Shown piece by piece: positions 2,747-54,154 of a DNA stretch of 64,000 nucleotides. The DNA comes from Syntrophaceae bacterium UBA2280. GTDB lineage: Bacteria; Desulfobacterota; Syntrophia; Syntrophales; Smithellaceae. Positions within the stretch are counted from its first letter, which is position 1. Every line of letters begins with the position of its first letter. The position numbers were made by a program, and so were the translations under genes. Location: the NCBI GenBank assembly GCA_002347685.1, contig DDWS01000001.1:18641-82640 (forward strand). The letters are read 5' to 3'. The notes under the pieces were generated by a model, which searched no databases, was not told the origin of the DNA, and saw nothing but the letters and a program-made list of their open reading frames with translations.

Positions 2747-2808
2747 CAGAAATCCGACAGGCCCTTTGCGGCATGGACTAAAAAAACGGTCAGTATCGGG
2801 GAGAAACA

Positions 2809-4466: not shown

Positions 4467-4477
4467 CGGAGGTTCCC

Positions 4478-28322: not shown

Positions 28323-28367
28323 ATAGTCATTTGACTACATGATATAGACAAATGACTATTTTGTCAA
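28323..28367 (-). promoter_or_regulatory. Promoter with palindromic operator of the Xre-RES operon
   Basis: Minus strand TTGACA (28367-28362), 17 nt, TATCAT (28344-28339). Perfect 11-bp inverted repeat ATAGTCATTTG / CAAATGACTAT (28323-28333, 28349-28359) overlaps it. Confidence 0.65.
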
Positions 28368-28631
28368 GGGACTTTACCACAACGATGTCGTTTGTTGAAG
28401 TAAAGCCGTTCACATGCTACTTTATTTCGATGGACACTTCGAATAGATAGATTTTTTTAGTCGGTTAATTCATCCTCAGCACGGGTCAATAAAGTATCTG
28501 TGTATTTTTTTCCGTTACTGCAACATACATAGACGATTACCTGCCATTTATGTGGCTACAATTAATAACGACCCGTATTGGTACTATGTCAAGACCATAT
28601 AATGGACCATATCATGATCTGTCCCGACTTA

Positions 28632-28691
28632 TATTTAACCTGACAAACATTGTCCATTAATTCTCATCCTTAGCTATCTTCTTTCATCTAC
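28632..28691. repeat. 60-bp direct repeat, copy 1
   Basis: TATTTAACCTGACAAACATTGTCCATTAATTCTCATCCTTAGCTATCTTCTTTCATCTAC differs from 30316-30374 by 3 mismatches and 1 indel. Confidence 0.9.
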
Positions 28692-28739
28692 AAACAAGTG
28701 ATTGTGAATATTCCGGCTGTTGATGATTACTGTTTGAAG

Positions 28740-28813
28740 GCGCAACGTGGAGCTCACACTGGTGTCTATGGAGCGCAGTGGAATAGCCATCAAGTGCAGT
28801 GGGTTCGTTGGAC
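28740..28813 (-). other. Candidate attC-like recombination site downstream of the caspase-like gene
   Basis: Minus strand GTCCAAC (a perfect RYYYAAC) lies 11 nt after the stop, and GTTGCGC lies at the far end. The arms between them form an imperfect inverted repeat with bulges. Weaker than the 36-42 kb sites. Confidence 0.4.
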
Positions 28814-28824
28814 GACAGCCTCAC

Positions 28825-29799
28825 CTATATTCGATTCTTCGCTACCAATCTCCGGTAGTGCTCTCCCAGGGCTGTAAGTCTGCAAGACTTGCCCTCCATG
28901 GCAGCGTTCCACATGTGTGTGGCACCAACTGGAACGAGTAGGTTCAGGCGGTTGTAGCGTTGCAACACCCCAAAAATGCGCGTATTTTCAGGGATTGGTA
29001 TCGGCATTCCTGGGTCTCGACCTTTCATCTCAGGCTCATAAGTGGGATCAAGGCTATACTCAAAGCCAGGATCGGGAAAAAACTCGGCTAATCGGCGTAA
29101 ATCAGAAATATCTATCGGAGGGGATGACTTTCGCAACGAAACGAACTGTTTGACGTTAGTCTTAAATACTGGTCGCTGCTCCCATGCACCTAAGGATTGA
29201 TCAATGTGCGCGTATACGCTTCCTGGAGTAATGTCTCCGGTAAGGTTAGCCGCACTTCCACTCAGCGCATCCACAAAGAGAGAGGTAAATACCCCCCGCC
29301 CGTTTTCTTCCGTTGCATATTGATCTTTTGTAGATGCGGTTAGAACAGTGAGGCCCTCTGATAAAGTGGCCAACTGGTCGCTGGTTGATGGCGTACCTGC
29401 GATACCCGAGTGACAGCTGTCTAATACGATGACTTTGTTTTTTGCTGGCGAAGCGTTCGCGCAATTCAGAATCTCAGAAAGAGATACTCCTTCATCACCG
29501 CGTTTCGAGTCTGTCGCAAGTAGATAGCCTCCAGACGCTTCAATATGGCCATGACCTGCGAAGTAAAACAAGGCGATATTTGCGTCGGTTTTGAAAAGCT
29601 CCTCAATTCGATCTTTTAGCTCACTGCGATCTACTCGGTCACTCGGACCAGTGCCGGTGAGTAATCGACAATCGAAGTTTACCGCGCCACCATCGTGCCG
29701 TTCAAGAATTGCCTTAACAGCATGAGCATCATCAACACATCCGAATAGTGGGCTACCGTGTGCGTAATAGTTAATGCCAACAATAAGTGCTATTCGCAT
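28825..29799 (-). CDS. Caspase-like (peptidase C14) protease with an uncharacterised C-terminal domain of about 130 aa
   Basis: Catalytic dyad context FYFAGHGH and [10 protein letters not shown]. 324 aa. 18-nt gap after the TIR-like gene. Confidence 0.85.
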
Positions 29800-29817
29800 A
29801 ATAGTTACCTTCCTGTG

Positions 29818-30189
29818 CTAGAGACTATCAATAAATTTCTCGATTGCGGGCCATGTCCATACAACGGTATTTACACCGGATAGATTTGCTCGGTCATCTG
29901 TGTATGCCCATATGCCGAGAATCTTCTTTTTCTCTTCTCGCGCGCAGGCAATCTCCCATTTCTGACCACTTGAGGTAAAGGAGTTCTTACTTACAAGGGC
30001 GATGACACCATCCGAGCGAAGGATCCGCGTGCGAACTCGATCCTTCCAGTTAGAATCGTATGGCTCCTTCACTGACATATCGACGTACTCAAACGGTGAG
30101 TTCGTGTTTAGAGATTGGCCCTTGAGGAAGTCTCTTTGTCTCTCATCTTCGATAGCGAACGCCACAAAAATCACTTTCTTGTCTGCCAT
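29818..30189 (-). CDS. TIR-like domain protein (DUF1863/ThsB-like)
   Basis: KKVIFVAFAIEDERQRDFL...SDGVIALVSKNSFTSSGQKWEIACA...KILGIW. ATG at 30189 is preceded by GGAGAGG (track start 30210 is a GTG inside that SD). Confidence 0.75.
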   Translation of the reverse strand: MADKKVIFVAFAIEDERQRDFLKGQSLNTNSPFEYVDMSVKEPYDSNWKDRVRTRILRSDGVIALVSKNSFTSSGQKWEIACAREEKKKILGIWAYTDDRANLSGVNTVVWTWPAIEKFIDSL

Positions 30190-30315
30190 TTTCCTCTCCT
30201 TTTTATACACAGTTATTTTTTACAGCACTTCCGAGCAAGTTCGCGCCAATTTCGAGAAGCCGAACACCTTGTCATTCGTGAAGTCGAGTGGTGTCATATC
30301 GGCAATTGCCACTTC

Positions 30316-30374
30316 TATTTAACCTGACAGACATTGTCCATTATTCTCATCCTTAGCTATCTTCTTTCACCTAC
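30316..30374. repeat. 60-bp direct repeat, copy 2
   Basis: See 28632-28691. Lies about 125 nt upstream of the TIR-like gene start. Confidence 0.9.
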
Positions 30375-30548
30375 CTATACGCAGCATAATCCGATTTTTA
30401 TATTGATATTGTTATGTTACGTTGTTTTTTAATCATAATTCTAAATCTGTCAAGTTAATTTTATTCCCAGCCACGACTTGTACGGAGTCGGCTGCAGCAA
30501 TTTGTTTCGGCCTGTTCCGCGATCATCCATGGCCCTTCCTATACGCCA

Positions 30549-33370: not shown

Positions 33371-33766
33371 CTAACGTATCACACCGTGCTCGATCTGGCC
33401 CAACTCATTGAGTACGGCTTCTACTCCACCCGGCTTTAACAGCCACTCCCGGCGGGTGCAATATAGGTCGGGGATCCAAGTGTTAAGATAGGAATCCACT
33501 GCACGCTCAGCCTCAAATACATCCATGGCCCTCTTTTGAATAACAACATGTCTTGCTAGCTGTCGCTTCAGTAATTTTAGCCGGTCCGCAGCACGACTGC
33601 CCCGGGCAGGTCCGAGGGCCTGCTCAATCCGTTCAAGCTTGATAGTCGCAGAGCGGATTGTTTCCGCCATAGTCAGACGATGGTCAGCAGCTTTTTGAAA
33701 AAAGAGATACGTCCGGTGCAAATCTATGTCCGCCTTCTCCAATATTTTTTTACGTTTAGGATCCAT
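33371..33766 (-). CDS. DUF2384-like (MbcA/ParS antitoxin C-terminal domain) protein
   Basis: The C-terminus AVDSYLNTWIPDLYCTRREWLLKPGGVEAVLNELGQIEHGVIR parallels the C-terminus of the 27873-28301 antitoxin. Confidence 0.65.
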   Translation of the reverse strand: MDPKRKKILEKADIDLHRTYLFFQKAADHRLTMAETIRSATIKLERIEQALGPARGSRAADRLKLLKRQLARHVVIQKRAMDVFEAERAVDSYLNTWIPDLYCTRREWLLKPGGVEAVLNELGQIEHGVIR

Positions 33767-35950: not shown

Positions 35951-36285
35951 GACCGTTTGCTCCCGGTACTTGGCCAGGGCATCCCGGCACGCAAAATACG
36001 CCTCCTGACGGCCCCCTGATGCTCTATTATTTCTTGGTTCAATTTAATTTAATATTTCATTCATCAAAATCCGTTAATGCCGCAATTAAAAGTAAAAAAA
36101 TAATATCTTAAAGATTGATGTTTTTAAGCGCATCTTATTGACGATTCTTCGGTTGATGTTTTGTGAAATAAGGATAGAGGGAAGAGTGGCGAATGTCAAA
36201 ATAACAAGGCGGCTCGTCCGTTTGCATCTACAAGTCAGCACCCATGGTGGATGAAATATTTTACTGATTTGCAATTGTAATAACG

Positions 36286-36446
36286 AGTCTGTAGAATAAC
36301 TCCAAAATAAGATATTCTTGCTATTTTTAGGGGTCTTTTTACCCCTCATCATCGCCAGATCGTCGCTTGTGGAGCATTCTCAGAAATTGATTTTTTAAGC
36401 ATCGTTCCCTGAATGCTGCTTCCTGACTTATTCTACAAGCTCAACG
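36286..36446. mobile_element. 161-bp MITE-like element with 15-bp terminal inverted repeats, copy a
   Basis: Ends are GAGTCTGTAGAATAA ... TTATTCTACAAGCTC, flanked by AACG on both sides. About 10 differences from copies b and c. Confidence 0.8.
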
Positions 36447-36607
36447 AGTCTGTAGAATAACTCCAAAATAAAATATTCTTGCTATTTTTAGGGGTCTTTT
36501 TACCCCTCATCATCGCCAGATCGTCGCTTGTGGGGCATTCTCCGAAGTCGTTTTTTTAAGCATCGTGTCCTGAATACCGCTTCCTGACTTATTCTACAAG
36601 CTCAACG
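36447..36607. mobile_element. 161-bp MITE-like element, copy b (tandem to copy a)
   Basis: By eye identical to copy c at 38685-38845. Directly abuts copy a and shares the AACG junction. Confidence 0.8.
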
Positions 36608-36665
36608 TAAAAATCAGCGGGAGCGTAGCGATCGGCTGGATTGCCTTTGTTATGCATTCATTGTC

Positions 36666-37649
36666 TTACCCGAATTTACCGCCCAAATACGTATAATTGT
36701 CCACATAGTTCTCTATTACTTTATGACCTTTGTCCAACTCGGCCTGAATAAATTCTTTAGACTGCCTCGGATGAAGTACGTTCTCCCTTGTAAGCTGCGG
36801 TGCCCGGAAATTGTCATTGCCGACGACTTGCTCCCGGCGGACTGCGTCAAAAGTATAATCGAGACCAGGCCATTCGAGTTCACTCTTGAAACCCTCTGCA
36901 AGCAGGACAGTAAAACGGTAGATGCCAAAGAGCGACACATAACCTACAAGAAGCCCCCGGTTCCTGTTAAGCGCGACGTGAATTTTATGAATAGGTCGAA
37001 CATGGTCTGTCATGAATCCAGTATGGGCAAAATTGGCACAGGCAAGAGCAGGCTTGTCAGATGCCTTTATGTATTTCCGAACCGCTTCGAACGCCGCTGA
37101 GAATATGACACTCTCAGGAAGTTTTATACACGTAAAGCCATATGCGATTTTTGAGACTGCTCTGCGCAGCAATGCATTGTCTATCATCATTACGCGTTCA
37201 GCTTCGGTCGGACCTTGGTGCACGTCCTGAAAGGTCTTCATGTCGCCTGGTACCTCATAGCGCCTCTGAATAGATGTACATATTTTCTTCAGTTCTTGCT
37301 CGGAGCGAGCTGTGACGTCCGCAAAATCAAGTTTCTTCCCGTCTTTGGAAACCACCTTGACCACTGGGTTCTTTCGCTTCATACTCTTTCCATCAAGGAG
37401 AAGCGTGGTTCCGGATTTCAATTCTTTGACTTCATAGGGCTGCGCCTTACTCCGCTCCCTCTTAATATTAAGCAGCGTACCGATCCACCCAAACTGCTTC
37501 GATATCTCATCGTCTATGCTGTCCCCAAAGGCTTCGTTGCACACCTTGCAGTACAGTTTTGCCTTCAACCTACCCCCAATTGCTTGTGGGATTATGTGTT
37601 CCACCGTCAGCGATCGTGGTTCAGTACAGACAAAGCAGTGAGTTTTCAT
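36666..37649 (-). CDS. HNH endonuclease domain protein (cassette-encoded)
   Basis: CFVCTEPRSLTVEHIIPQAIGGRLKAKLYCKVCNEAFG (CxxC...EH...CxxCN). 327 aa. The stop lies just upstream of the attC. Confidence 0.7.
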   Translation of the reverse strand: MKTHCFVCTEPRSLTVEHIIPQAIGGRLKAKLYCKVCNEAFGDSIDDEISKQFGWIGTLLNIKRERSKAQPYEVKELKSGTTLLLDGKSMKRKNPVVKVVSKDGKKLDFADVTARSEQELKKICTSIQRRYEVPGDMKTFQDVHQGPTEAERVMMIDNALLRRAVSKIAYGFTCIKLPESVIFSAAFEAVRKYIKASDKPALACANFAHTGFMTDHVRPIHKIHVALNRNRGLLVGYVSLFGIYRFTVLLAEGFKSELEWPGLDYTFDAVRREQVVGNDNFRAPQLTRENVLHPRQSKEFIQAELDKGHKVIENYVDNYTYLGGKFG

Positions 37650-37665
37650 TAGTTTGTTGTTCCAT

Positions 37666-37731
37666 GCATAACAACATGCTCACCGGCGTGGCGCGCTGTT
37701 CAGCCACGTCCGGTGCAGCTATTCGTTATGC
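37666..37731 (-). other. attC site
   Basis: GCATAAC...GTTATGC with imperfect inverted arms ACATGCTCACCGGCGTGGC / GCCACGTCCGGTGCAGCTAT. Starts 2 nt after the stop of 37734..38111. Confidence 0.8.
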
Positions 37732-37733
37732 AG

Positions 37734-38111
37734 CTACGTTTTGACCCTGGTGTTGTATTTACATTTCGGGCATTCATGAGTCGCGTTCATTATCTCTACA
37801 AAATCAGTCGGCACAGGTCTCATATAGAATGGTCTACCAACTGTCGAACAGTTGGGGCAGGTTGGGACTCCAGAGGGTCCGGTCGCTGTTGCCGAAAGCT
37901 CCTGAATCCGGTGCTCCAGGCTCCTAATCTTGTCTTTTAGCTCCTGTCGCTCCTCCCGTAGTGCTATGTTTGCTTCATGCAGTGCGGCCTGCTCCGACTG
38001 AAGTGTTAAGGCAAGATTTTGAACTTCACGAAGTTCGGCGGCAACTTTCCTATCAGCGATGCTTGTTGATAATTGCGTCACAAGGTCAACCAAATCTTTG
38101 ATGGTCCCCAC
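37734..38111 (-). CDS. Coiled-coil protein with a C-terminal zinc ribbon (second gene of a two-gene cassette)
   Basis: Heptad-rich N-terminus, then CPNC...CPKC. Starts 15 nt after the upstream gene. Confidence 0.6.
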   Translation of the reverse strand: MGTIKDLVDLVTQLSTSIADRKVAAELREVQNLALTLQSEQAALHEANIALREERQELKDKIRSLEHRIQELSATATGPSGVPTCPNCSTVGRPFYMRPVPTDFVEIMNATHECPKCKYNTRVKT

Positions 38112-38126
38112 CTACGGCCTCCTTTC

Positions 38127-38663
38127 TCATCCCTCAAGTTCATGCCTAAAGTCTGTCTTGATTCTGTCAAGCAATTCGTTGCGCGTATTCGTGTTACCCT
38201 TGAGCTCAGCAACGTAGCGATGCAAAGCGTCGTTAACCTCATCTGCCAAATACTTTGGGTTGATAGAAAGGCATCTTGAAACAATGACAACCGTCTCGGG
38301 CTGATCAAGTGCGAATTGTCCTCCATTTTTGATACGGCCTTCGTGAACCAAGCCATTTCTGAATTCATCATAGAACCGGTGAGCAATGTCGTTGCTGGCA
38401 AAGCTTTGCAGTTGGGCCTTTACCCATGAACGGAATCGGTCGCCCACGCCAGTAGACAGGTGCAACCGTGCAAGGGCATCGATGCAACTCACTAACAGAA
38501 GTCCGCAGGCGAAGGCATGGCCGTTTCTTATCATTGCAGCGGCGGGCTCCAAGTAGAAGCCTTTCATTCGTTTCTCAAACTGCTCTGGCAGTATCTGGCC
38601 GGAAAGGTCCAGCTCTGCGAACTTGATACCCGGAGCAAAATAGAGGATGTCAGCAATTCTCAT
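38127..38663 (-). CDS. Hypothetical protein with an Rx4H (HEPN-like) motif
   Basis: FRNGLVHEG (R-N-x3-H). ATG at 38663 is preceded by GGAAGGA (track GTG start 38675 lies inside the attC core). Confidence 0.55.
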   Translation of the reverse strand: MRIADILYFAPGIKFAELDLSGQILPEQFEKRMKGFYLEPAAAMIRNGHAFACGLLLVSCIDALARLHLSTGVGDRFRSWVKAQLQSFASNDIAHRFYDEFRNGLVHEGRIKNGGQFALDQPETVVIVSRCLSINPKYLADEVNDALHRYVAELKGNTNTRNELLDRIKTDFRHELEG

Positions 38664-38676
38664 TTTTCCTTCCACT

Positions 38677-38901
38677 GCATAACGAGTCTGTAGAATAACT
38701 CCAAAATAAAATATTCTTGCTATTTTTAGGGGTCTTTTTACCCCTCATCATCGCCAGATCGTCGCTTGTGGGGCATTCTCCGAAGTCGTTTTTTTAAGCA
38801 TCGTGTCCTGAATACCGCTTCCTGACTTATTCTACAAGCTCAACGTAAAAATCAGCGGGAGCCTGATTTTTAGGCGATCCGCTGGATTGATTTTGTTATG
38901 C
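38677..38901 (-). other. attC site of the 389-aa cassette, interrupted by one 161-bp element
   Basis: GCATAACG | insert | TAAAAATCAGCGGGAGCCTGATTTTTAGGCGATCCGCTGGATTGATTTTGTTATGC. The stop codon of 38896..40065 lies inside the distal core. Confidence 0.75.
38685..38845. mobile_element. 161-bp MITE-like element, copy c
   Basis: Same ends, same orientation and same insertion point (after ATAACG) as at 36286. Confidence 0.8.
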
Positions 38902-40065
38902 GTGTTCTAATATTTTTTCAATTTCTTCCTTTAATGATCCAATAACATCTGAATGGCTTTCCATATGAAAACCGATAATGCAGACGGCGTCGTGTTTGGT
39001 GTGTTCGCGACTGTCTGGCAACCTCAAAATGTCGTAACCCATAATGTGGCCGTTCAAGTTATTACAATAATTAACAGCCCTAATGGTTGCCAACTCCTCT
39101 TTAGTTGGAGCAAACATTCTTGACGGAGGCGTAAAGATGGCTTCAAAACAAGGAGCGACCACTTCCCTGATAAAATTATCGACATCCTTGAGATTAATAT
39201 TGTTCTTTGGCTTATAAAAAACACTCAAGATAATTGGACCATAAAGAGCGCTAAATAATGGATATTGCTTTTTAAAAGCAGATAGTTTCTTTGTAATTAC
39301 TTCTTTCTGGGAAACGATTTCCTCTGTGTTTCTTGGAATGGTTACGCTTACGCGAATAGGATATTTCAAAACAGTCATCAGAATGTCTACGAACGAAGTG
39401 CCTCTACGTTTGTATTTGTTGTGATTATAAAGCAAGTCCAAGTAAAAAGGTTGCACTTCATTGATTCTTAGAATGTCTTGTTGTCTTTGATACATTTCAA
39501 TCTTATACCCAAGTGAGTTAACGGGATAGTTAATCGGTTCAGTGAGGTCAACGTCTCTTTCCCGCTCTCGGCCGGCAACACGGTTTTCGTCTTTAAGTCT
39601 TTTAAAAATGTTAGCGTATTCAAGAACTGCGTTAAAACTCTCTATAAGAATATGCGCACCAGCGGACTGCATTTCTATGTTTTGACGAACGGAGAGAAAG
39701 GATACCTGCGAGTCATCATAGTATGGCAGGCGTGATCTTATCGCCCCGTCATTTTCTCGTGGGTCTTGTTGATTGCGGTTTACATGCATTAAATCCAACA
39801 TATTTTTAGACGCATTGACAACTGTCGGAGGACTGTTGTCGTTGTAGCAGTAGAGAATTCGCAGATAAACGTTACTTGTAAATGCTTTTCTTCCTAAATT
39901 TATAAAGCGTTGGTTGAGATCTCTCTTAACAATATTTCTCTTTTTTTGGCTCATACCTTGCTTCGACTTCACTTTGCCATCAATAGAGAAAAGAATTTGT
40001 CTTCTCTGCAACTGGCGGAATTTATGTTTTAAGAAATCCAAGGATTCAAGGTAGTCATTAAACAT
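38896..40065 (-). CDS. Hypothetical protein (389 aa), cassette-encoded, no family recognised
   Basis: AT-rich ORF that fills the space between two attC sites. Confidence 0.6.
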   Translation of the reverse strand: MFNDYLESLDFLKHKFRQLQRRQILFSIDGKVKSKQGMSQKKRNIVKRDLNQRFINLGRKAFTSNVYLRILYCYNDNSPPTVVNASKNMLDLMHVNRNQQDPRENDGAIRSRLPYYDDSQVSFLSVRQNIEMQSAGAHILIESFNAVLEYANIFKRLKDENRVAGRERERDVDLTEPINYPVNSLGYKIEMYQRQQDILRINEVQPFYLDLLYNHNKYKRRGTSFVDILMTVLKYPIRVSVTIPRNTEEIVSQKEVITKKLSAFKKQYPLFSALYGPIILSVFYKPKNNINLKDVDNFIREVVAPCFEAIFTPPSRMFAPTKEELATIRAVNYCNNLNGHIMGYDILRLPDSREHTKHDAVCIIGFHMESHSDVIGSLKEEIEKILEHA

Positions 40066-40084
40066 ATGTCATTAATCTCAATGT

Positions 40085-40141
40085 GTATAACGACGAAATC
40101 AGCGGGGAGCGTAGCGAGTCCGCTGTATTGCCTGGTTATGC
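40085..40141 (-). other. attC site
   Basis: GTATAACGACGAAATCAGCGGGGAGCGTAGCGAGTCCGCTGTATTGCCTGGTTATGC. ATAAC/GTTAT cores, CAGCGG/CCGCTG inner stem, unpaired spacer bases. Confidence 0.85.
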
Positions 40142-40145
40142 ATTT

Positions 40146-40739
40146 TCACGTGTCCCTGTTTAAACGATACCACATAATATCATCATATTGCGTTGGAATA
40201 ATATCATTATTGAATTCATTATTTATTTCCGTCTTAATTAAACATTGTAGCTTGTCGTACAATTTTTGGTCGATTTGTTCGACACTCTTTGCTTGAATAA
40301 TCTCATCGGGGAATTTAATTTTAAGGTGATTCAATATCGGATTGTCGATTGCTGTGTTCATGAATGGTAAAATAACTACTGCCGTTTCACTGTCCGGTAG
40401 ACTTGAATAGTAGACGTAAACTTTCAATACGACATCAAGTAATTTGGCTGCGTGTCCATAAAGCGCATATCCGGATTCTTTAATTATTCTATTATCTCTT
40501 TCCTTCTGTGCTGTTTTAATATTCTTTGTGAACCATATGCAAAAATTGCCATGCAACCTTTTGAATTCTTCTTCAGTTCTTATCTCTTTGAGTTTCTGAA
40601 ATTCTTCATATAGTTTCTTTCCGATTATCGGTTTTGTACCTTTTTCAAAGAGTCGGATCATGGCTGTAAATGTCAAACCCATGTCTATAACACTCTTCTG
40701 TTTTATTTCGGAGGCGATCACTATATTCGCTGACTTCAT
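40146..40739 (-). CDS. Hypothetical protein (197 aa), cassette-encoded
   Basis: AT-rich ORF bounded by attC sites on both sides. Confidence 0.6.
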   Translation of the reverse strand: MKSANIVIASEIKQKSVIDMGLTFTAMIRLFEKGTKPIIGKKLYEEFQKLKEIRTEEEFKRLHGNFCIWFTKNIKTAQKERDNRIIKESGYALYGHAAKLLDVVLKVYVYYSSLPDSETAVVILPFMNTAIDNPILNHLKIKFPDEIIQAKSVEQIDQKLYDKLQCLIKTEINNEFNNDIIPTQYDDIMWYRLNRDT

Positions 40740-40753
40740 ATTATTTCATTCCT

Positions 40754-40809
40754 GCATAACGGCGAAATCACCCGGAACGTAGCGATCGGGTGTATTGCTT
40801 TTGTTAGGC
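40754..40809 (-). other. attC site
   Basis: GCATAACGGCGAAATCACCCGGAACGTAGCGATCGGGTGTATTGCTTTTGTTAGGC. The stop codon of 40804..41586 lies inside the distal core. Confidence 0.85.
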
Positions 40810-41586
40810 TTTTTCATGCCAATGACTGAGAAATAAGTGGCCAAATTCCGATACGGCCATTCCATCGGTCAATAACTGAGGATGGAGGATCAAAGGTCTC
40901 GGTGGTGAATCTTCTTTAAAAGCGTGCAAAAAGGTGAAATTCGGACTGCCAAGCGCATCTTGCTCGGTCCACACCTGCTCCAAACGTTCCCAGTTACTGT
41001 TTTTTATGCATTCGGTCTTCTCCGCCTCTAGTTCATTGAAGCGTCGTCCTTCTTCCGGCACAAATTCTGCTGGAGGTATATACGGCGGAATCCGATGCGC
41101 AAGTGCATCTCTATAGGACTTTGCGTAGGACTTGTGCCACTCAGTTGTCAGTGGTGAAGTCAAATAGTTACGCAGCTGTTCTGGCAAGTGGTCGCGGGTT
41201 GCATCGATGAAGAGCCCAACCCGACGGCGATCTCCTATTATCGATTCCAGATTGTGGCGGAGCACATACGCCCAAGCCCAGTTATCGTATAGTCCATAAA
41301 GGTTTATTAAGAAAGCGTGCAAGTTGATTTGTACGTCAGTTAAAGTGTTCCTGTCAAGTGGACGTGTTGTGCTTGGGGGAAACAGAGTGAACACGTTCTC
41401 AATACTGCGCCGAATGACTCCAACGCGCCGGCCTGCCCCATGCAGCAAGTGCTCACGCGCGCGCGATGCAGGATCGAGTAGTTGCCCTTCGAGAACGATC
41501 TTTAATTGCAAGTCGTTCAACATGGCGAGTACTTCAACGCATTGCGATTCTAGTGTCTCAAGTGCTTCAGCGTAAAAGAACATCAT
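40804..41586 (-). CDS. Hypothetical protein (260 aa) with an Rx4H (HEPN-like) motif, cassette-encoded
   Basis: YRDALAHRIP (R-x4-H). Higher GC than neighbouring cassettes. Confidence 0.55.
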   Translation of the reverse strand: MMFFYAEALETLESQCVEVLAMLNDLQLKIVLEGQLLDPASRAREHLLHGAGRRVGVIRRSIENVFTLFPPSTTRPLDRNTLTDVQINLHAFLINLYGLYDNWAWAYVLRHNLESIIGDRRRVGLFIDATRDHLPEQLRNYLTSPLTTEWHKSYAKSYRDALAHRIPPYIPPAEFVPEEGRRFNELEAEKTECIKNSNWERLEQVWTEQDALGSPNFTFLHAFKEDSPPRPLILHPQLLTDGMAVSEFGHLFLSHWHEKA

Positions 41587-41603
41587 GCCTCGATGCCGTC
41601 ATG

Positions 41604-41659
41604 GCCTAACGACGAAATCACCCGGAGCGTAGCGATCGGGTGGATTGATTTTGTTATGT
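41604..41659 (-). other. attC site
   Basis: GCCTAACGACGAAATCACCCGGAGCGTAGCGATCGGGTGGATTGATTTTGTTATGT, near-identical to 40754-40809. Confidence 0.85.
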
Positions 41660-41667
41660 TAATATAA

Positions 41668-42294
41668 TTATTTCATTATTTCAAAGACCGCTTTCCAGAA
41701 TTGAATCACTTCAGGAAAATATTCATTTAACGTTAATTGGCAATAATATGATCCTCTTGCTAAAGCTTGGTCTCTATTTTGGATATCAAGGTATGGTATT
41801 AACTCGACTTCATCTTTAGTAATTGGTAACTCAAATCTGGCAACAATTTTATTAGTGACAAGTAGGAATTCTATGTTTGATATTTTATTTTTAAGCTCAT
41901 TTCTAAATTTCCTTATATGAAAGATATATGTAATGTTTATCTTCAAGAAGATTAGAATTGGCAAATTATATTTATCATAATGGCCCTTCATTAATGCTTT
42001 GGCGAATGGTAGAAAACTTTTATTTGTATTATTCTTGGTCGCTTTGTTTATATAGAAGAGTAGAGAATCTAAAAGCTCTCTGCTGTTAAACAATAATTCC
42101 CTGAAACAGGAAATTAACTCTTTGTCATTTCCATGCCCCTTTATGAACAGCGTTGTATATTTGTCCACTTTATCTTTTACTTCGCTGTTTTTGGCTAGTG
42201 CTATTTTTGTAAAACGTCCATTGGCATATCCAAGCTGTTCAAAGCGCAATATGTGATCATCCTTGAATAATTCTGGCATGCCAAATTGGACCAT
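41668..42294 (-). CDS. Hypothetical protein (208 aa), first cassette of the array
   Basis: Very AT-rich ORF. On the minus strand it is preceded by GTTATGT (42319-42313) and followed by an attC. Confidence 0.6.
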   Translation of the reverse strand: MVQFGMPELFKDDHILRFEQLGYANGRFTKIALAKNSEVKDKVDKYTTLFIKGHGNDKELISCFRELLFNSRELLDSLLFYINKATKNNTNKSFLPFAKALMKGHYDKYNLPILIFLKINITYIFHIRKFRNELKNKISNIEFLLVTNKIVARFELPITKDEVELIPYLDIQNRDQALARGSYYCQLTLNEYFPEVIQFWKAVFEIMK

Positions 42295-42319: not shown

Positions 42320-42431
42320 AATTAATCTACCGTGTTTGGTTTTTCCGAAAAATCGATATTTTTATACTCCGATCGAAAAAGAAAGGAAAGCGAAAAAATG
42401 CTTAAAAAACAACGAACATTGAAAAGCTGCA

Positions 42432-42504
42432 TTTGGCATTTCACGATAATAAGGACCAAAAGCCAAATTGGGTATTTTATGGGAAAAGTGTCCAACCTGT
42501 AGAA
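42432..42504. repeat. About 73-bp repeat A, containing inverted motif TTTGGC-N15-GGACCAAA
   Basis: The 29-bp core TTTGGCATTTCACGATAATAAGGACCAAA matches 49772-49800 at 25 of 29 positions. A second block, GGAAAAGTGTCCAA, matches GGAAAATTTGTCCA. Confidence 0.7.
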
Positions 42505-44842: not shown

Positions 44843-47437
44843 TCAATAATCCCTCGCCAAGGTTCCACTAAAGAGACTCGCCGCATCTCTGGCAACTGTA
44901 ATAGCCTTGCGCACCTCGTCGCTCTTCAAATCAAGCACGCGCAGCTTTCCTAATGCCTCTGCAACAGACTCAATACGTCGATATGTGCTACCGTGTGTCT
45001 CAGCATATAAGGCAAGCCCCTGTAGTTTTGGCAGGGCATCTGCAAGGTGGAGACTATGCGGGTCAACAATGTCCGCTACCACCATTCCATCAGCCTGTGA
45101 CGCAAAGAATATGAAATCTGGTCGAATGATGCCATATCTGTCGCCAGAAACATAAGCAATTCCCAGTGAAGATTGTCCCGGCTGTTGCGGGTTGCGATAC
45201 CAGAAGATGAAGCCCTCACGCTTCATCTCGGTTTCGAGAACCTTTTCTTCCCAATTATTCAGTGCCGTCGGGTAAGTGCCCTGCGTGTCGCAGAGCAAAT
45301 GGCTTAGGTAGGTCGGCAACGCCTTCTCAACGTTGTTTTCACGGACCTTAGTCAGCTCGAATCGGGCCTCCGGTTTTACCAAATCGACATCTTGGGGTTC
45401 GGTACTCATTTCAATGATCTGGCGGTAAGACTCCTGCCGGTCATGCGAAAGAGATTTAATGGCAGCTTTGTATGTTTGCAGCCATTTCCTAGCCAACTTA
45501 TCAGCCTCGGCATCAAAGTAGGGCTGTAGTTCACTCACTAAACCAAGAGCTGCCACGGAAACGCGACCTTCGATAAGAGCCTCTTCAAATTCATCTGCAT
45601 CTTCAGGGTCTGCCATCCGATAAGCGAGAGCATCGACATAGGTGCGTGAAATATCTGGGCTAAAGATTCGTGCCGCACGCCGGTATGCATCATCAATAAC
45701 CGCCATGTCAGCGGCTTCCCAGAACTCATCAAAGCTCATGGATTTGCCTTTTATGTCAGCCAATACCGTCTTTCCATCTACGGTCAACACGTCCTTGCGC
45801 TTGGCTTCAATCTTTTCTGTTTCATTCTCCCGAAGCTTATCCAGCACGGCATGCATGGCTGCATGCGCCTGCCTACCTGCACCCGGCAGAATGTCGTCCG
45901 CGGCCAGCTCATGCGCCAGCGCTGTCAAGCGTTTTGCCGGTTTCGCTGCGCGGTGTGGGCGGGTCTGCGACGGCAGCGATTCGAACTTATCCCACACCGC
46001 ATCCGTAGTTTGCGGATGGGGTTTCATCTCCACCGGGTTGATAAGCACACGTCCCGGCGGTGGCGGCGCAGTGTCATCCCCCCTCATCAAAGCATCTACG
46101 ACTTCGCTAACTGTTTTTGTATTAAACTTAGGCAGCAAACAGTCCACCGCGTTAAGACGGTCATTACCGGGGATGCGCCGTGCCAACGGAGAACGCACCA
46201 TCCGCCCTATCAACTGCGTGATATGGGTACGGTCCGTCGCGGCGCGGAAAGAAATCATCACTTCAGCACGCGGACAATCCCAGCCCGTGCTGATGGCGTC
46301 TTTAGCAATCAGAATACGCACCCAGGTCGATTCCTGAACGCGCTCAGGCTCTATGTACGGAACATAACGGTTTCCGAAATGCTGAGTGGTGTGATCACCA
46401 AATACGTGCGCCACACTGCCACTCGGCAAATCCGACCATTGCCGATAAATGGTGTCCAATGCACGACCGATATCGTTCGGATCTGGTGTATTGGGAACCT
46501 GTAATACCATTAGCGGAATGACGGGGCGGGCCTCCTCCTGCTGGTTCGCGTACTCAGTCCATGCATCAGTCGATGTCTTCAGCTTATCTGTGGCTCGACG
46601 CACAAGCACGGTATCGAAATCCCCGATTTCATCCGGCATATCCAGAATGATCGTGTCCTTAATCAAGCCAGATTCCTGCACTTTCGCCGAATCCACCACT
46701 ACATCGGGCAAAATGATTCGCTGTTGTGCACCTTCCATCGCCTTTTTGAATCGTTCCACGGTTGCCGATATACCCCACACCACAGGAATACCTGGTACGC
46801 CAAAGGCGCCGTTAATCAGCCGTTGTACGATGGTGCTTTTCGCATTCACGCTTGCTGCATTGGGGTTGCCCATGCCGCGATGTGCCTCATCAAGCACTAA
46901 GTAGAGCGTCAGTTCCGGATCTTCAATGGTATTAAGAATAGTGTCCCAGATGGTATAAGAGCGCATATCAGGACGGGTTTCTGGAATTATTATGCCAAAC
47001 TTGGCTTCCATCTCGTCTAAGTCATGGCCACGCACCAACAAGCTGTTCTTGCTCAGCTTTTGCGTATTCAGAAAATAGATCTTACCGGCTTCAAACTTGG
47101 ATCGGTTAAAGGTGTTCTCTACCACTACCATGTCGGTGTGCTGAATACGATCACTGGCTTCCATCAATCGAAAGCGCGTCTGTTCATTCAAAGACGGGTC
47201 ATCACTAAACCAGATCACCACTGCGCCGGGATCTGCGTCAAAATCATATTCGTCATCACCATGAAACAGAGCCTCAAAGGCAGCAGCGGCCATTACTGTC
47301 TTGCCCGCGCCGGTAACGGCTGTTAACGAAAATGCATGCTTATCGGCATCTTCACGCCACCTTTTGCGAGCCTTCTTAAGATTGGTCAACGCATCGCGCA
47401 CTGCATCGGTCTGGTAGTCCTTCAGTGTAAATTTCAT
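44843..47437 (-). CDS. res: Type III restriction enzyme, Res subunit (SF2 helicase-nuclease)
   Basis: Motif I TGAGKT, motif II LVLDEAHRG. 864 aa. Immediately downstream of the mod gene. Confidence 0.88.
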   Translation of the reverse strand: MKFTLKDYQTDAVRDALTNLKKARKRWREDADKHAFSLTAVTGAGKTVMAAAAFEALFHGDDEYDFDADPGAVVIWFSDDPSLNEQTRFRLMEASDRIQHTDMVVVENTFNRSKFEAGKIYFLNTQKLSKNSLLVRGHDLDEMEAKFGIIIPETRPDMRSYTIWDTILNTIEDPELTLYLVLDEAHRGMGNPNAASVNAKSTIVQRLINGAFGVPGIPVVWGISATVERFKKAMEGAQQRIILPDVVVDSAKVQESGLIKDTIILDMPDEIGDFDTVLVRRATDKLKTSTDAWTEYANQQEEARPVIPLMVLQVPNTPDPNDIGRALDTIYRQWSDLPSGSVAHVFGDHTTQHFGNRYVPYIEPERVQESTWVRILIAKDAISTGWDCPRAEVMISFRAATDRTHITQLIGRMVRSPLARRIPGNDRLNAVDCLLPKFNTKTVSEVVDALMRGDDTAPPPPGRVLINPVEMKPHPQTTDAVWDKFESLPSQTRPHRAAKPAKRLTALAHELAADDILPGAGRQAHAAMHAVLDKLRENETEKIEAKRKDVLTVDGKTVLADIKGKSMSFDEFWEAADMAVIDDAYRRAARIFSPDISRTYVDALAYRMADPEDADEFEEALIEGRVSVAALGLVSELQPYFDAEADKLARKWLQTYKAAIKSLSHDRQESYRQIIEMSTEPQDVDLVKPEARFELTKVRENNVEKALPTYLSHLLCDTQGTYPTALNNWEEKVLETEMKREGFIFWYRNPQQPGQSSLGIAYVSGDRYGIIRPDFIFFASQADGMVVADIVDPHSLHLADALPKLQGLALYAETHGSTYRRIESVAEALGKLRVLDLKSDEVRKAITVARDAASLFSGTLARDY

Positions 47438-47452
47438 TCCTTGTTCCCCTGC

Positions 47453-49579
47453 TTATTCTCCATTGGTGAAACTGAAATTGGTAAGGTATGATTCATACAA
47501 ACGTATCGGCTCCACCCCACTGGGCAGGCGGCGGGCAATGGCCTGAAAGCGGCGGTCGTCATCGGTCACGATGTAGGCCACCTGTAAGTCCCTGGCCTGA
47601 TTAATGGCCTTTATAAATGGCGTGACAGCATCGACCTCCACCAACAAACCGTAAGCCTCTACCACAGCCCAGCCAGCGGCGGGCAGCTTGTCAATACACT
47701 GACCACGACTCCCTGCCCGCAGCCAAAGCATCGAAGCAATGCGTTCGAAGGCGCGGTTATGGTTGACGGAAACCGGCGTTTCGTAGGTCAGGGTGAAAAA
47801 CTCAGCGTTTTCTTCGAAACCCTCAGCCATCGGGAATTCATCGGTGAACTTGTAATCGCCCTTGATTGGCATGCCATCCGGCGTTTTGCCCGTAATTGCG
47901 GCAGCAACGCGTGGCTTCGTGATGTAGTCGCAGATGCCCCACTTCTCCCAGTCCTCATCGCCGGGGCGCAGACCCTGCTTGCGCAGTTCCTTTTGTTCAT
48001 CAGCAGCCACTTCGTTGTTGGTTACAGAGATGCACTGGCGGCGGCCACCGTCTTGATGATTGAGGCGCATCAGGGCATGGGCGGTAGTCCCAGAGCCGGA
48101 GAAAAAATCAAGGATGACGGCATTTGGCTTGTTTGCAACAAAGAAGCGCAGCGCGTCTTCAACGGCATAGAGTGATTTAGGGAATGGGAAGTTGCGACTT
48201 AGCAAAAATTTTGCTAAAAGCCGACTGCCATATTGGGTCGAATCATGAGCAGAGACTTTCCATTGCGTTCCTGGTATGGCCGTAACAACACTAGGATCGT
48301 TCTCTTCAACTAACAGAGAGCCATTAGGCGCGCAACCCATCTCTTTGAATTCCCCAGACTGAATTTTCTCATACTCTCCCGGTTTGAGAATATAGACCGT
48401 GAACCCTTTTTTTAGGCTTCCTCCAATACTGACCCGGCCCTCCTGCATCCTTTCTTTGAACGTCTCCGGAGACCACTGCCAGTTACCTTCTGACTTATCT
48501 TGCCGAATAGGTAAAATTGCAGTCAGACCAGGAATTTCTGGCGCTGAGCTGACACCTGGCTCAAGTGTGTCACCGACTTTCGCAACTATGTTGTTCTTAG
48601 GGTCAACATAGATTGGGTAGAAGCAGCCAGGCGAGTGACTCCTCTCAGCGTTAGTTCCCGAGCGTCTCAGCAAATCCCAACGAATCTTGCCGGTGTGTGT
48701 ACGCCCCTTCCCCGAAACCCATTCCCGATCAAGCCGCAATTTCGTGGGCGCAGCCTCGCCAATCATAACGAAGAACAAATACTCATCGCTTCTTCCGAAA
48801 CCACCGACTCTCGCTACCGCCGCTGGGTTGATCAAGGCACTTACCATCTGAATTCTGGCTTCAGGGAACGTCTGTTCCAGCAATAATCCAAGCCGCAGAT
48901 ATTCCTTCTCGTCGATAGTCACAATCAGTACCGAATTCGACGGATTCAGCAGTTCTCGCGCAACTAGCAATCGCCGCTCCATCATCGCGAGCCACTTGCT
49001 GTGCCGATAGAGGTCATCACCCTCGACGTAATCATTGTTGTATTTCCAATCCTTCGCCCCCGAGTTGTAAGGCGGGTCGATGTATATGGCATCCACCTTA
49101 CCACGATGTGTAAAGGTCAGAGCCTTCAATACGTGGTAGTTCTCGCCGTTTATGACAGTATGGAAGGGTTTGTCACCACCACGCCTCACGTTGCCTGTGC
49201 TGACCAAGCCAGGGTAGATGGTGTCGCGAAACTCGGACACCACAACTAGGTCATCGAGCGCCACGGTTTGAGTTTCCGGCTCTGCGGCATCCAATAGTTC
49301 AAGTTCAGCAAACCTGGTCGCCCCTTCTTTGCGAATGGCCTTCACCAGCCAAAGGCGCGGATCTCCTTTTTTGGTCGAGCCTCGTGCTGGCAATACCCGA
49401 ACTTTAGCGCCTTTGCGAATAGACCGCAGCGGCAGCTCCACCGCTTCCGGGCGATGACGTTCAAAATTCAGGCCGAAAGGCAGACGTGCCGACAGCACCT
49501 TAAATTCCCTATCGAGGTCTGCCCCTAGTTGTGAATCTTTGGCTTTCGCTTTGGCAATCAAGTCAGTTAATCGTGACAC
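47453..49579 (-). CDS. mod: Type III R-M DNA methyltransferase, Mod subunit
   Basis: IYIDPPYNSG (motif IV) precedes DFFSGSGTTAHA (motif I), the beta-class order. 708 aa. Confidence 0.88.
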   Translation of the reverse strand: MSRLTDLIAKAKAKDSQLGADLDREFKVLSARLPFGLNFERHRPEAVELPLRSIRKGAKVRVLPARGSTKKGDPRLWLVKAIRKEGATRFAELELLDAAEPETQTVALDDLVVVSEFRDTIYPGLVSTGNVRRGGDKPFHTVINGENYHVLKALTFTHRGKVDAIYIDPPYNSGAKDWKYNNDYVEGDDLYRHSKWLAMMERRLLVARELLNPSNSVLIVTIDEKEYLRLGLLLEQTFPEARIQMVSALINPAAVARVGGFGRSDEYLFFVMIGEAAPTKLRLDREWVSGKGRTHTGKIRWDLLRRSGTNAERSHSPGCFYPIYVDPKNNIVAKVGDTLEPGVSSAPEIPGLTAILPIRQDKSEGNWQWSPETFKERMQEGRVSIGGSLKKGFTVYILKPGEYEKIQSGEFKEMGCAPNGSLLVEENDPSVVTAIPGTQWKVSAHDSTQYGSRLLAKFLLSRNFPFPKSLYAVEDALRFFVANKPNAVILDFFSGSGTTAHALMRLNHQDGGRRQCISVTNNEVAADEQKELRKQGLRPGDEDWEKWGICDYITKPRVAAAITGKTPDGMPIKGDYKFTDEFPMAEGFEENAEFFTLTYETPVSVNHNRAFERIASMLWLRAGSRGQCIDKLPAAGWAVVEAYGLLVEVDAVTPFIKAINQARDLQVAYIVTDDDRRFQAIARRLPSGVEPIRLYESYLTNFSFTNGE

Positions 49580-49771
49580 ACAGGCTCCGTTTTCGTTAAT
49601 GAGCGGCGCGTTACCGCAGAATTTTTACTGTTGTGCCCACCGCTTTGGGATGGTTAATCTTCTTTGTCCATTATCTTCGTAATAGCAAGATGCTCTTGCA
49701 TCTTTTTAAACGATTTGATGCAGAAAGAAAAGTGGAAATCCTTTTAAAACCAGATTAATTTAAAAACAGGT

Positions 49772-49846
49772 TTTGGCTTTTCGCAACAATAAGGACCAAA
49801 GAAGAAGAAGGAAGTTTTTTCTGGAAAATTTGTCCAGTGTAAAGAA
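49772..49846. repeat. About 75-bp repeat B (partner of 42432-42504)
   Basis: TTTGGCTTTTCGCAACAATAAGGACCAAA ... GGAAAATTTGTCCAGTGTAAAGAA, in the same orientation and block spacing as repeat A. Confidence 0.7.
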
Positions 49847-50147: not shown

Positions 50148-50594
50148 CTAATTCGAATCAAGCTTTTTGCGCAAAATGGTCTGCCCGCGGTTAACATCAG
50201 GTAGAGGCTGACTCAGTAATTCGTAGTCGAAGCCATGAGCAGACGCATTGAAAGCCCATATGGTGAATTGTTCTAATAGGCGTTGATTTTCCGACTCTAA
50301 TCGTCTGTTTTCCGCCTCGAACCGTTCGATACGCTGTCGCGCGATCTGTACCTCTGGTGACGAGGTAGGTCCGATCTGGCCGCCATCCCTCAATAGATTT
50401 TTCTTTGTAAGGAAATACGCATTGCGGATTCTTTCGTGCTTGAAGAGTGCTTGCCGTGTATAGCGGCCATAAATGCGAACCGCAATCTCATCAATCAGCA
50501 GATTCCACGTAAGCTTGGTAGACCAACCATCGAGGATTTCAACTATCCGCTTGATATCAACGTCTGATAAATTTTTAGCTCGCCTGTGCATCAT
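50148..50594 (-). CDS. Small helical protein, fourth gene of the recombinase operon (GinD/TnpC-like by position)
   Basis: Coiled-coil RQRIERFEAENRRLESENQRLLEQ. The ATG at 50594 overlaps the end of the upstream recombinase gene. Confidence 0.6.
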   Translation of the reverse strand: MMHRRAKNLSDVDIKRIVEILDGWSTKLTWNLLIDEIAVRIYGRYTRQALFKHERIRNAYFLTKKNLLRDGGQIGPTSSPEVQIARQRIERFEAENRRLESENQRLLEQFTIWAFNASAHGFDYELLSQPLPDVNRGQTILRKKLDSN

Positions 50595-52608: not shown

Positions 52609-54154
52609 TAAAACCCCTGATATCGCGAATGAGTTGGCACTGTCTTACAACCTCCGCAACTGCCAAAATCGTTCGGTCGCAAATCGAAGCAACGCGCAAG
52701 TCAGAGGACACCAGCAGCCGTTCGCGTTCGTTAATCAGATAATCCAACACCGCGCCGTGAGGACCGTCAAGCCATGGCCGAAAACCTCTGCACTGGTAGC
52801 AGGCAATAGGTGCCGACAAACCGCAGAAACCATTATTATCACAATTGCCCATCGGCTTCATCAAAGGGTCAAAGCGCGGATCACACACTCTACAAGCGGG
52901 ATCTCCTGCATAAGCGGCTTCGGTTTCATCTTTAATAATGACACCGGCAAATGCTGCTGCAAGTGGCGCCAACTGAAGTGCCACAGCGCGATCGATTCTC
53001 TCTATAATCTCCGGCATGGCTTGAACATAGACGCTGACATTTTGAGTATCTGTGTGATCCAAAAGTTCGGCAATTATTAACTCACCGTGGCCTTCAACAG
53101 CGGCCCTGGTGCCAACGCTTCGTCGAAAGCGATACGCGTTCACATTAAGAGGCTTTCCGGTGCGCTCCGACCTTACTTCCAGTCTTCCCACAATTTCTGA
53201 TAAAGCACGTGAAAGAGATCGACTTGTTTGATGATACTCAAAACCATTAGGCACTTTTTCGCGTATTCCTTTTGTTGGGAACAAGGGAGCTTGGCCTGGA
53301 TCTTCCAGTCTCAGCATAAAGCTCTCTTGCACTTCCGATGCATGCCGCAGGAGATTTTCACCGAGCTTCGCAATCAAAAGACGATTTTTAAACTCTGACC
53401 TTGGAAGACTGTGCCGCAGCTTGGCACGGGGAACACGAATTGAATAGACCGTCATCCCGTTCTTTGTTTCTCCCGACTTCACGTCGCAAACTTTGAGAAG
53501 AGCATACTGTACCGGACGCAGTCCTAGTGCGAGAAAAAGCGAAACCAAAACATATTCGCCAAGATTAATGACCTCGTCCTTGAAAGCTGTTTCCAATGAA
53601 AATAGAATCGCCTGATTCTCAAGATCAGTGTAGGGACCATTCACCGGATCCATTGTCAAAACCGCCTCGCCCTTTTTATTACCTGTAAGTCGGAGTTGCT
53701 TGAGAATGGCTATTGCACCGTCTTCTATTCCCAAATACCTCATTTCATGCCATTTTTTCATTAAACCAGATATACTGCCTAGATAGTAATGATCCCTTTT
53801 TTTTAATGTTGCATAGTAATTAATTATTTGATGCGGAGAAATCGATGAAACAATCATTCCTGATTCTGAGACGGTGAAGCTTAAAAATTTTTTTAAATAA
53901 AAATACAGATTATCCAAGTAACCCAACGATTTATTCTGCGCGTACCAAACGAAAACTTTCTTGGCTGCCAATTTCATTTCCGGAGTTATTGGCAATTTTC
54001 CGAAATCAAGCTTTACAGTATTCGAACTTTCATGACAATTCCAGATATCCAATCTCGGATCAAATTCCGCGCCACCTCGGGTACTGACTATTGACGGCAA
54101 GGTTAAATCACAGATTTTTGATGATTCGCGGCGCAAAGCCAAACTATTTATCAT
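52601..54154 (-). CDS. Tyrosine recombinase (517 aa; second of the trio)
   Basis: GLRPVQYALLKVCDV, AYRFRRSVGTRAA and LLDHTDTQNVSVYVQ. Confidence 0.75.
   Translation of the reverse strand: MINSLALRRESSKICDLTLPSIVSTRGGAEFDPRLDIWNCHESSNTVKLDFGKLPITPEMKLAAKKVFVWYAQNKSLGYLDNLYFYLKKFLSFTVSESGMIVSSISPHQIINYYATLKKRDHYYLGSISGLMKKWHEMRYLGIEDGAIAILKQLRLTGNKKGEAVLTMDPVNGPYTDLENQAILFSLETAFKDEVINLGEYVLVSLFLALGLRPVQYALLKVCDVKSGETKNGMTVYSIRVPRAKLRHSLPRSEFKNRLLIAKLGENLLRHASEVQESFMLRLEDPGQAPLFPTKGIREKVPNGFEYHQTSRSLSRALSEIVGRLEVRSERTGKPLNVNAYRFRRSVGTRAAVEGHGELIIAELLDHTDTQNVSVYVQAMPEIIERIDRAVALQLAPLAAAFAGVIIKDETEAAYAGDPACRVCDPRFDPLMKPMGNCDNNGFCGLSAPIACYQCRGFRPWLDGPHGAVLDYLINERERLLVSSDLRVASICDRTILAVAEVVRQCQLIRDIRGFNG

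Follow-up and report, generated by a model that had tools for sequence, protein, structure and literature searches.

The window analysed here, a 64,000-nucleotide stretch of contig DDWS01000001.1 from Syntrophaceae bacterium UBA2280, carries a TIR gene and a gene for a caspase-like protease that very probably constitute a type IV Thoeris antiphage system, orthologous to that of Pseudomonas sp. 1-7. An initial annotation, made from the letters alone, had proposed this reading. It is supported by the 72% identity of the TIR protein to PsTIR, by the position of the catalytic Cys129, by a MALT1-like fold and by the presence of a homologous TIR gene directly upstream of the caspase gene in 72 of 86 related loci. 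The layout first described, a 123-aa TIR protein followed after 18 nt by a 324-aa protein on the minus strand, is correct throughout (Table 1), and the genes are organised as a single operon. Rousset et al. (10.1101/2024.10.24.620036) detect the system by TIR and caspase-like genes that neighbour each other on the same strand and are separated by no more than one gene; the window genes lie 18 nt apart, both on the minus strand. Related loci were numbered L003, L004 and so on, and counts were taken over 80, 82 or 86 loci as stated. The gap between the two genes is 5-30 nt in nearly all of them.

The small protein is a ThsB-type TIR. Pfam ThsB_TIR (PF08937) matched it with E=5.7e-8 (33.5 bits, cutoff 21.2), which places it within the TIR superfamily, and the PADLOC ThsB model matched with E=1.5e-6. 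PF13676 (TIR_2) scored 25.5 bits, under its cutoff of 28, and a PDB sequence search with the window TIR gave no match. For comparison with PsTIR, the translation of the clone in Table S2 of Rousset et al. was used. The two proteins, both of 123 aa, align without gaps at 88 identical residues of 123 (72%, E=9e-68), and SSGQKWEI is aligned between them. This segment includes Glu79, the residue that had been singled out as a candidate catalytic Glu in SGQKWEIACA. Glu79 is invariant in all 66 aligned TIRs that adjoin related caspases. By sequence, the window TIR belongs to the PsTIR clade.

The partner protein is a caspase-like protease with an additional C-terminal domain. Pfam Peptidase_C14 (PF00656) matched residues 1-212 with E=7.5e-17 (62.2 bits, cutoff 21.4). 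The PADLOC 'caspase' model matched with E=4.9e-21, and thus the PADLOC run that had been suggested as a check matched both members of the pair. A PDB sequence search returned a weak metacaspase-4 match only, and NCBIfam contained no specific model, the sole match being caspase_w_EACC1 below threshold. The dyad, His83 in FAGHGH and Cys129 in LDSCHSG, is intact. Its residues also align across 60 diverse representatives (35-57% identical to the window protein): all of them have His83, and at least 90% retain Cys129. An AlphaFold2 model of the effector reached a mean predicted local distance difference test score (pLDDT) of 96.1 and a predicted template modelling score of 0.92. When this model was compared with the PDB using Foldseek, matches to MALT1 paracaspase, caspase-11/-4, CED-3 and metacaspases were obtained with E=1.6e-12 to 1e-9, MALT1 being the best (E=1.6e-12).

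Several features connect the effector to PsCaspase. The window Cys129 carries the same residue number as the Cys mutated in the published PsCaspase C129A, and the first nine residues read MRIALIVGI in the window protein and MRKALVVGI in PsCaspase. Plasmids of Rhodopseudomonas sp. BAL398 and Sphingomonas paucimobilis encode homologs 56-61% identical to the window protein, and Table S1 of Rousset et al. (10.1101/2024.10.24.620036) names both the strain BAL398 and the species S. paucimobilis among the carriers of type IV Thoeris.

The family is large and the window pair is of its usual size. More than 7,700 database matches were found for the caspase; the best 120 show 83-100% identity and, with few exceptions, a length of exactly 324 aa. 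Matches over the full length with E<1e-30 fall into 475 clusters at 50% identity. A relative of the caspase is encoded in 519 species-representative genomes, the best 80 of which come from many bacterial phyla, from lineages of the candidate phyla radiation (CPR) and from one archaeal metagenome-assembled genome (MAG). The pair had been called unusually small. This does not hold, as PsTIR is likewise 123 aa and nearly all close caspase homologs are exactly 324 aa; the window pair is a plain ortholog of canonical size and not a compact variant.

For the Pseudomonas ortholog, Rousset et al. (10.1101/2024.10.24.620036) reported synthesis of N7-cADPR, promiscuous arginine-specific proteolysis and an abortive-infection-like phenotype, and defence was lost in the PsTIR E79Q and PsCaspase C129A mutants. 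The phage capsid was reported to be a determinant of sensing (PMC13243611). The steps that follow were established for the ortholog and are extended to the window pair by orthology. The bare 123-aa TIR would detect phage infection and, via Glu79, would convert NAD+ to N7-cADPR, an isomer of cyclic ADP-ribose. This molecule would activate the 324-aa protease with its His83/Cys129 dyad, presumably via the C-terminal domain in a dimer. The activated protease would then cut many cellular proteins after arginine, EF-Tu included, and growth arrest or death of the infected cell would be expected ahead of the release of phage progeny.

At some of the related loci, TIR genes vary more than their effector partners. 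At L038, L039, L044, L070 and L074, where the TIR gene lies just upstream of the caspase (2501-3472 or equivalent), the caspases are 69-77% identical to that of the window while their TIR partners are only ~30% identical, with Glu79 kept; here the sensor gene appears, from these comparisons, to have been swapped while the effector remained constant. A second, different TIR-type gene (beginning, for example, MKIFLSHQ or HDVFISYS) lies directly 3' of the caspase stop at L018, L034, L035, L045, L064 and L073. In some systems the effector gene is thus flanked by TIR genes on either side, and at L052 two TIR genes lie upstream.

Partner swapping of this kind raises the question of whether the window pair could be a functional variant, a relative of type IV Thoeris with a different TIR product or protease specificity. 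EcTIR of E. coli 328 is a further case in point, being of a different TIR type and yet working with this caspase family. We consider such a variant very unlikely at this locus. The window TIR is a member of the PsTIR clade (72% identity, ungapped) and the effector C-terminal domain is strongly conserved across the family. Moreover, metabolites of the unrelated EcTIR activate PsCaspase according to the literature, which points to one shared signal across divergent TIRs.

Residues 206-324 of the effector correspond to the extra C-terminal portion in which the initial annotation had recognised no motif. No known domain was matched by this segment, and a PDB fold search with it gave no significant neighbour. 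It is nonetheless conserved in the family: it aligns end to end in the 475 clusters, and Q208, R209, P210, R223, F241, E255, C306, T309, G312 and Y315 are its conserved residues. Modelled alone with AlphaFold2, as had been proposed, the domain gave a confident structure (pLDDT 90.7). Its top PDB fold matches are nearly all winged-helix regulators of the MarR and PadR types, at non-significant E values of 0.08-0.4. Rousset et al. hypothesised that N7-cADPR is bound by the C-terminal domain of the caspase (10.1101/2024.10.24.620036). We presume that the domain serves signal binding and dimerisation; its features would fit both a dimerising module that binds a small ligand and the published hypothesis but are proof of neither. 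A secondary possibility is that it is an N7-cADPR receptor derived from a winged helix, which, if true, would be a new class of sensor for cyclic ADP-ribose isomers. The conserved residues point to targets for mutation of the proposed signal-binding domain.

Judging from substitution patterns, the pair is under strong purifying selection. The ratio of nonsynonymous to synonymous substitution rates (dN/dS) between the window and its nearest relatives is 0.02-0.08 (0.02-0.03 for the TIR gene), with synonymous sites near or at saturation. Because dN/dS is low and synonymous sites are saturated, the 88-95% identity of the window proteins to copies in unrelated genomes reflects strong constraint and not just recent transfer. 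These values bear on another alternative, that the pair is a silent, decaying remnant that no longer gives defence. The flanking recombination sites have indeed decayed (see below), no promoter was detected upstream, and other remnants are present in the surrounding island, such as a 125-aa N-terminal integrase fragment. We nevertheless regard a dead locus as highly improbable, given that both open reading frames (ORFs) are full length, that all conserved and catalytic residues are intact, that the proteins and their dN/dS show the constraint just described, and that a separate, independent sequencing run also yielded an identical assembled copy.

Some observations weigh against the type IV Thoeris identification. 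A promoter scan found no sigma-70-like promoter upstream of the TIR gene, and a fossil cassette, as described below, is without the Pc promoter of an integron. The receptor role of the C-terminal domain is a hypothesis, and the sole fold matches of the domain are non-significant ones to winged-helix proteins. The link to PsCaspase was drawn from architecture, residue numbering, the first nine residues and shared genomes, not from a full alignment.

Many relatives of the pair are cassettes of integrons. A canonical attC directly follows the caspase stop in at least 11 of 82 loci. Note that this count was checked by hand, as an automatic fold count had both false positives and false negatives. 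The attC sites of L008, L013, L014, L016, L017 and L019 fold well beyond shuffled sequences (z -2.6 to -5.0; the aadA1 attC has z -5.0). Canonical relatives start with G/TTGGGC or G/TTAGGC, and a leader of 41-64 nt leads from there to the TIR ATG. On E. coli plasmid NZ_CP041112 (L004) the order is estX - aadA1 - attC(aadA1) - TIR - caspase, the last being truncated; GTTAGGC closes the aadA1 attC, 41 nt ahead of the TIR ATG. A later insertion has cut the caspase on this plasmid, and in the E. coli copies the protein is truncated after residue 128. Over 809 nt of DNA, the L004 cassette (3944-4752) shares 96.7% identity with that of a Desulfuromonadaceae MAG (L013, 2065-2873), and the match starts at the R' site with the leader included. 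On the evidence of these loci, the TIR-caspase family is frequently carried as an integron cassette. The E. coli plasmids with the estX-aadA1 TIR-caspase array are from pig, chicken and human sources. In a Thermomonas MAG (L062), the first 70 nt past the caspase stop contain an attC nearly identical to that of aadA1 (GCATAACGATTCGTTCAAGCCGATGCCGCTTCGCGACACGGCTTAACTCAGGTGTTAGAC). In the Marinobacter locus L065, the expected AAC of R'' reads AAA, a single-base loss.

At the window pair, only remains of such a cassette are found. Using RYYYAAC as the R'' consensus and GTTRRRY as the R' consensus of attC, the RYYYAAC core noted earlier was located as GTCCAAC at 28813-28807, exactly 11 nt after the caspase TAG stop. 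It is the R'' of a homolog of a real attC: the window site, from GTCCAAC to GTTGCGC, aligns over its whole length with the attC of orthologous cassettes in L016 and L014, which form canonical bulged hairpins (z -2.6 to -3.1). The window R', GTTGCGC, departs from GTTRRRY at position 5. A constrained fold of the window attC compared with shuffles gave no hairpin (E -6.7 kcal/mol, z +0.1), and the stem is mismatched. On the other side of the pair, candidates for the R' of a preceding attC lie 54-69 nt before the TIR ATG. There, window ATTGGCGCGAAC was aligned by MAFFT to GTTGGGCGGAAA of L006, L007, L014 and L016 with modest similarity, and this position is probably a relic 5' junction. No integron integrase (IntI) was found in the 64-kb window, which is part of a 122-kb contig; the recombinases at 50575-55415 match generic Xer-type and 'integrase_1' models. 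As orthologs are often integron cassettes, the window copy is read as a fossil of one, in which the attC hairpin and both junctions have decayed. Cassettes of this kind thus decay in place into ordinary defence-island genes.

Two approaches to attC folding were abandoned. A home-made attC scanner based on 22-nt arm alignment missed known sites and gave counts near those for shuffled sequence. RNAalifold on six attC sites found no structure because MAFFT had misaligned the right arms; it was replaced by the constrained single-sequence folds against shuffles used here.

Direct repeats lie on both sides of the pair, as had been noted. The copies are 64 and 65 nt long, with 61 identical of 65 aligned columns and one 1-nt indel (blastn E=3e-21), and both end in GTTAAAT, a match to GTTRRRY. 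They are outside the cassette ends and were found nowhere else: the repeat is absent from all 80 related loci, and a metagenome scan gave one chance 24-nt match inside an unrelated coding region. The 65-nt repeat is therefore local to the contig of the window. The upstream copy has at its 3' end GTCTGTCAGGTTAAAT (30332-30317), which forms the right arm of a 15-nt inverted repeat with AATTAACTTGACAGA as its left arm. AATTAACTTGACAGA pairs at 14 of 15 positions with 30331-30317 (13 Watson-Crick pairs and one G-T; score 18), and shuffles gave 1-6 such per strand. This ~144-nt inverted repeat weakly suggests an attC-like site following the DUF4238 gene. The downstream copy is regarded as a partial duplicate of the neighbouring site because no left-arm partner was found on folding 28628-28822 or 28632-28745.

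The initial annotation took the pair for a mobile cassette with these repeats as part of its packaging. It was right as to the kind of element, an integron cassette, but not as to its extent or present state. A stronger form of the idea, that the pair is still an active, mobilisable cassette recombining at the 65-nt repeats, has several points in its favour: the R'' core 11 nt past the stop, the GTTAAAT ends of both repeats, real attC sites 6 kb away, and orthologous cassettes that are bona fide. We judge it unlikely, since the attC of the pair itself ends at GTTGCGC, 48 nt before the downstream repeat, no longer folds (z ~0) and has an R' off consensus. When GTCCAAC (28813) was joined to the repeat end GTTAAAT (28633) as a single 180-nt attC, folding gave no end pairing (z -0.12), and this candidate was rejected. 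The missing left arm of the downstream repeat, the absence of repeats and leader from the 80 related loci and, beyond the one chance match, from the metagenomes scanned, and the lack of an integron integrase within the window also count against active mobilisation.

The 25-codon ORF that had been pointed out between the upstream repeat and the TIR gene is present. It is nested in a 30-codon GTG ORF and is absent from all 80 related loci; the 133-nt leader (30190-30322) is likewise unmatched in any of the 80, and in L003 homology begins only a few nt before the TIR ATG. Being unconserved and lying across both the leader and the relic junction, the ORF is most likely spurious and no gene.

Table 1. 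Coordinates of features of the type IV Thoeris locus and its surroundings in the window
Feature	Position	Strand	Details
TIR gene (thsB-type), 123 aa	29818-30189	minus	ATG at 30189; stop 29818-29820; Glu79 codon 29953-29955
Intergenic spacer, 18 nt	29800-29817	minus	contains GGAAGG, resembling a ribosome-binding site; read from sequence
Caspase-like ORF, 324 aa	28825-29799	minus	TAG stop
Caspase-like (Peptidase_C14) protease domain, residues 1-205	29185-29799	minus	His83 codon 29551-29553; Cys129 codon 29413-29415
C-terminal domain of effector, residues 206-324 and stop codon	28825-29184	minus	conserved across the family
Decayed attC (pseudo-attC) of the TIR-caspase cassette	28740-28813	minus	R'' GTCCAAC 28813-28807; R' GTTGCGC 28746-28740
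Probable relic 5' cassette junction (R' of preceding attC)	30244-30265	minus	candidates GTTCGGC 30265-30259 and ATTGGCG 30250-30244
25-codon ORF, most likely spurious	30220-30297	minus	nested in 30-codon GTG ORF; overlaps relic junction and leader
Upstream direct repeat copy	30311-30374	minus	45 nt upstream of relic junction
Downstream direct repeat copy	28627-28691	minus	48 nt beyond pseudo-attC
Left arm AATTAACTTGACAGA of attC-like inverted repeat, ~144 nt	30446-30460	minus	inverted repeat ends in GTTAAAT; would be the site after the DUF4238 gene
Three tandem recombinase-like genes	50575-55415	minus	high-coordinate island end, next to ssb
Type III restriction-modification system	44843-49579	minus
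Integrase N-terminal fragment, 125 aa	26933-27310	minus

The pair lies in a typical defence island, ~26.9-55.4 kb (~28 kb), in which GC content is below that of the flanks and every gene is on the minus strand. The RES-Xre, MazF, Fic and restriction-modification genes that had been listed as neighbours are all present, with MazF identified as MazF/PemK and the restriction-modification system as type III, in addition to a DUF4238 gene. From high to low coordinates, the island consists of the recombinase trio, the type III restriction-modification system, an attC array with an HNH gene, Fic, MazF, an Xre-like orphan, DUF4238, the Thoeris pair, Xre-RES and the integrase N-terminal fragment. Core genes flank it: ssb, lysS and bamA lie at one end, a rodZ-like gene and tatA at the other. 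No tRNA gene was found in the window to mark an insertion site. The recombinase genes encode a 423-aa tyrosine recombinase (54144-55415), a 517-aa 'integrase_1' protein (NCBIfam E=1.8e-160) and a 677-aa protein without a family match, a layout that resembles a 'recombinase in trio' element. A duplicated island end was considered and rejected, as the 125-aa integrase fragment is unrelated to the 423-aa recombinase.

Other features of the island are given here as separate observations. A clear run of intact attC sites lies at 36.6-41.7 kb on the minus strand, with the Thoeris pair ~6 kb beyond it. At 36282-41700 (minus) there are at least six attC sites of one family, with GCATAAC, a central CGCTACGCTCC motif and GTTRRRY. 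The genes between them are short and mostly of unknown function, one being an HNH endonuclease, and the array also contains three copies of a 182-nt repeat, each ending in an attC-like GTT. As no IntI was found in the window, the array is, within these limits, one that lacks an integrase. Two further direct repeats of 65 nt (42396-42460 and 49736-49800), intergenic and 72% identical to each other, flank the type III restriction-modification system and two ORFs of unknown function. Next to MazF, at 33371-33766 (minus), is the gene for a 131-aa protein that weakly matches Xre/ParS-type RES antitoxins. A RES toxin is not adjacent, and the protein may represent an orphan antitoxin or part of a mixed toxin-antitoxin pair. 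A near-consensus sigma-70 promoter (TTGACA, 17 nt, TATCAT; 11 of 12 positions) lies at 28339-28367 (minus), just upstream of the Xre-RES operon; no other strong promoter-like site occurs close to the Thoeris pair.

Compared with type IV Thoeris as described for PsTIR and PsCaspase of Pseudomonas sp. 1-7 (Rousset et al., Science 2025), the window copy shows no difference of kind. It has the same gene order and tight spacing, a TIR of equal length with Glu79 aligned, an effector with the Cys129 position and the extra C-terminal domain, and a location in a defence island. It differs in coming from an uncultured organism (JGI metagenome 3300040971, contig Ga0242423_000243) and in retaining integron attC remains. 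The system has been known since 2024-2025 and is detectable with standard tools, and the features presented at first as unusual are either the norm of the family or local debris. The locus is thus one more environmental copy of a described defence system.

Integron-borne phage-defence cassettes (BRiCs) have been published, among them the two-gene 'Tragantia' brc22/brc23 (Kieffer et al., 10.1101/2024.07.02.601719, Science 2025). Tragantia, too, has two genes in one cassette, a ThsB homolog and after it an ORF of ~300 aa, and is found in mobile integrons; the pseudo-attC of its Marinobacter homolog lost the AAC/GTT box by one mutation, and L065 shows the same loss. The second protein (Deva) was described by its authors as membrane-protein-like, however, and not as a caspase. 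Comparing descriptions only, Tragantia is probably a member of the TIR-caspase family. A broader reading, for and against which we see about equal weight, is that type IV Thoeris is largely carried by one conserved integron cassette, that Tragantia is the same system and that the window copy is one of many fossilised insertions. The cassette would consist of G/TTGGGC or G/TTAGGC, a ~60-nt leader, TIR, caspase and an attC with a GCCCAAC-type R'', and would be common to many bacterial phyla, CPR genomes and an archaeal MAG and would reach aadA1-containing arrays on E. coli plasmids. The loci described above show directly that type IV Thoeris often rides as an integron cassette, and the 96.7% DNA identity between the cassette on E. 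coli plasmids from pigs, chickens and humans and that of an environmental Desulfuromonadaceae genome is a modestly useful side result.

Type I and II Thoeris, in which a ThsB TIR is paired with a SIR2-SLOG or Macro-TM protein, also use an ADP-ribose-derived signal on infection and a cell-killing effector. The window effector is instead a caspase-like protease, not an NADase or pore, and has no SLOG or Macro sensor domain. The published type IV signal is N7-cADPR, not 3'cADPR or His-ADPR (Rousset et al., 10.1101/2024.10.24.620036).

The protease domain shares the caspase-hemoglobinase fold and His/Cys dyad with MALT1, metacaspases and PCaspase of type III-B CRISPR, at only 14-18% sequence identity and with a different C-terminal domain. 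Cleavage after basic residues, which was reported for PsCaspase, is also a property of MALT1 (an arginine-specific paracaspase), metacaspases and PCaspase. These enzymes are activated by scaffold dimerisation or proteolytic processing, whereas the window effector would be activated by a small-molecule signal.

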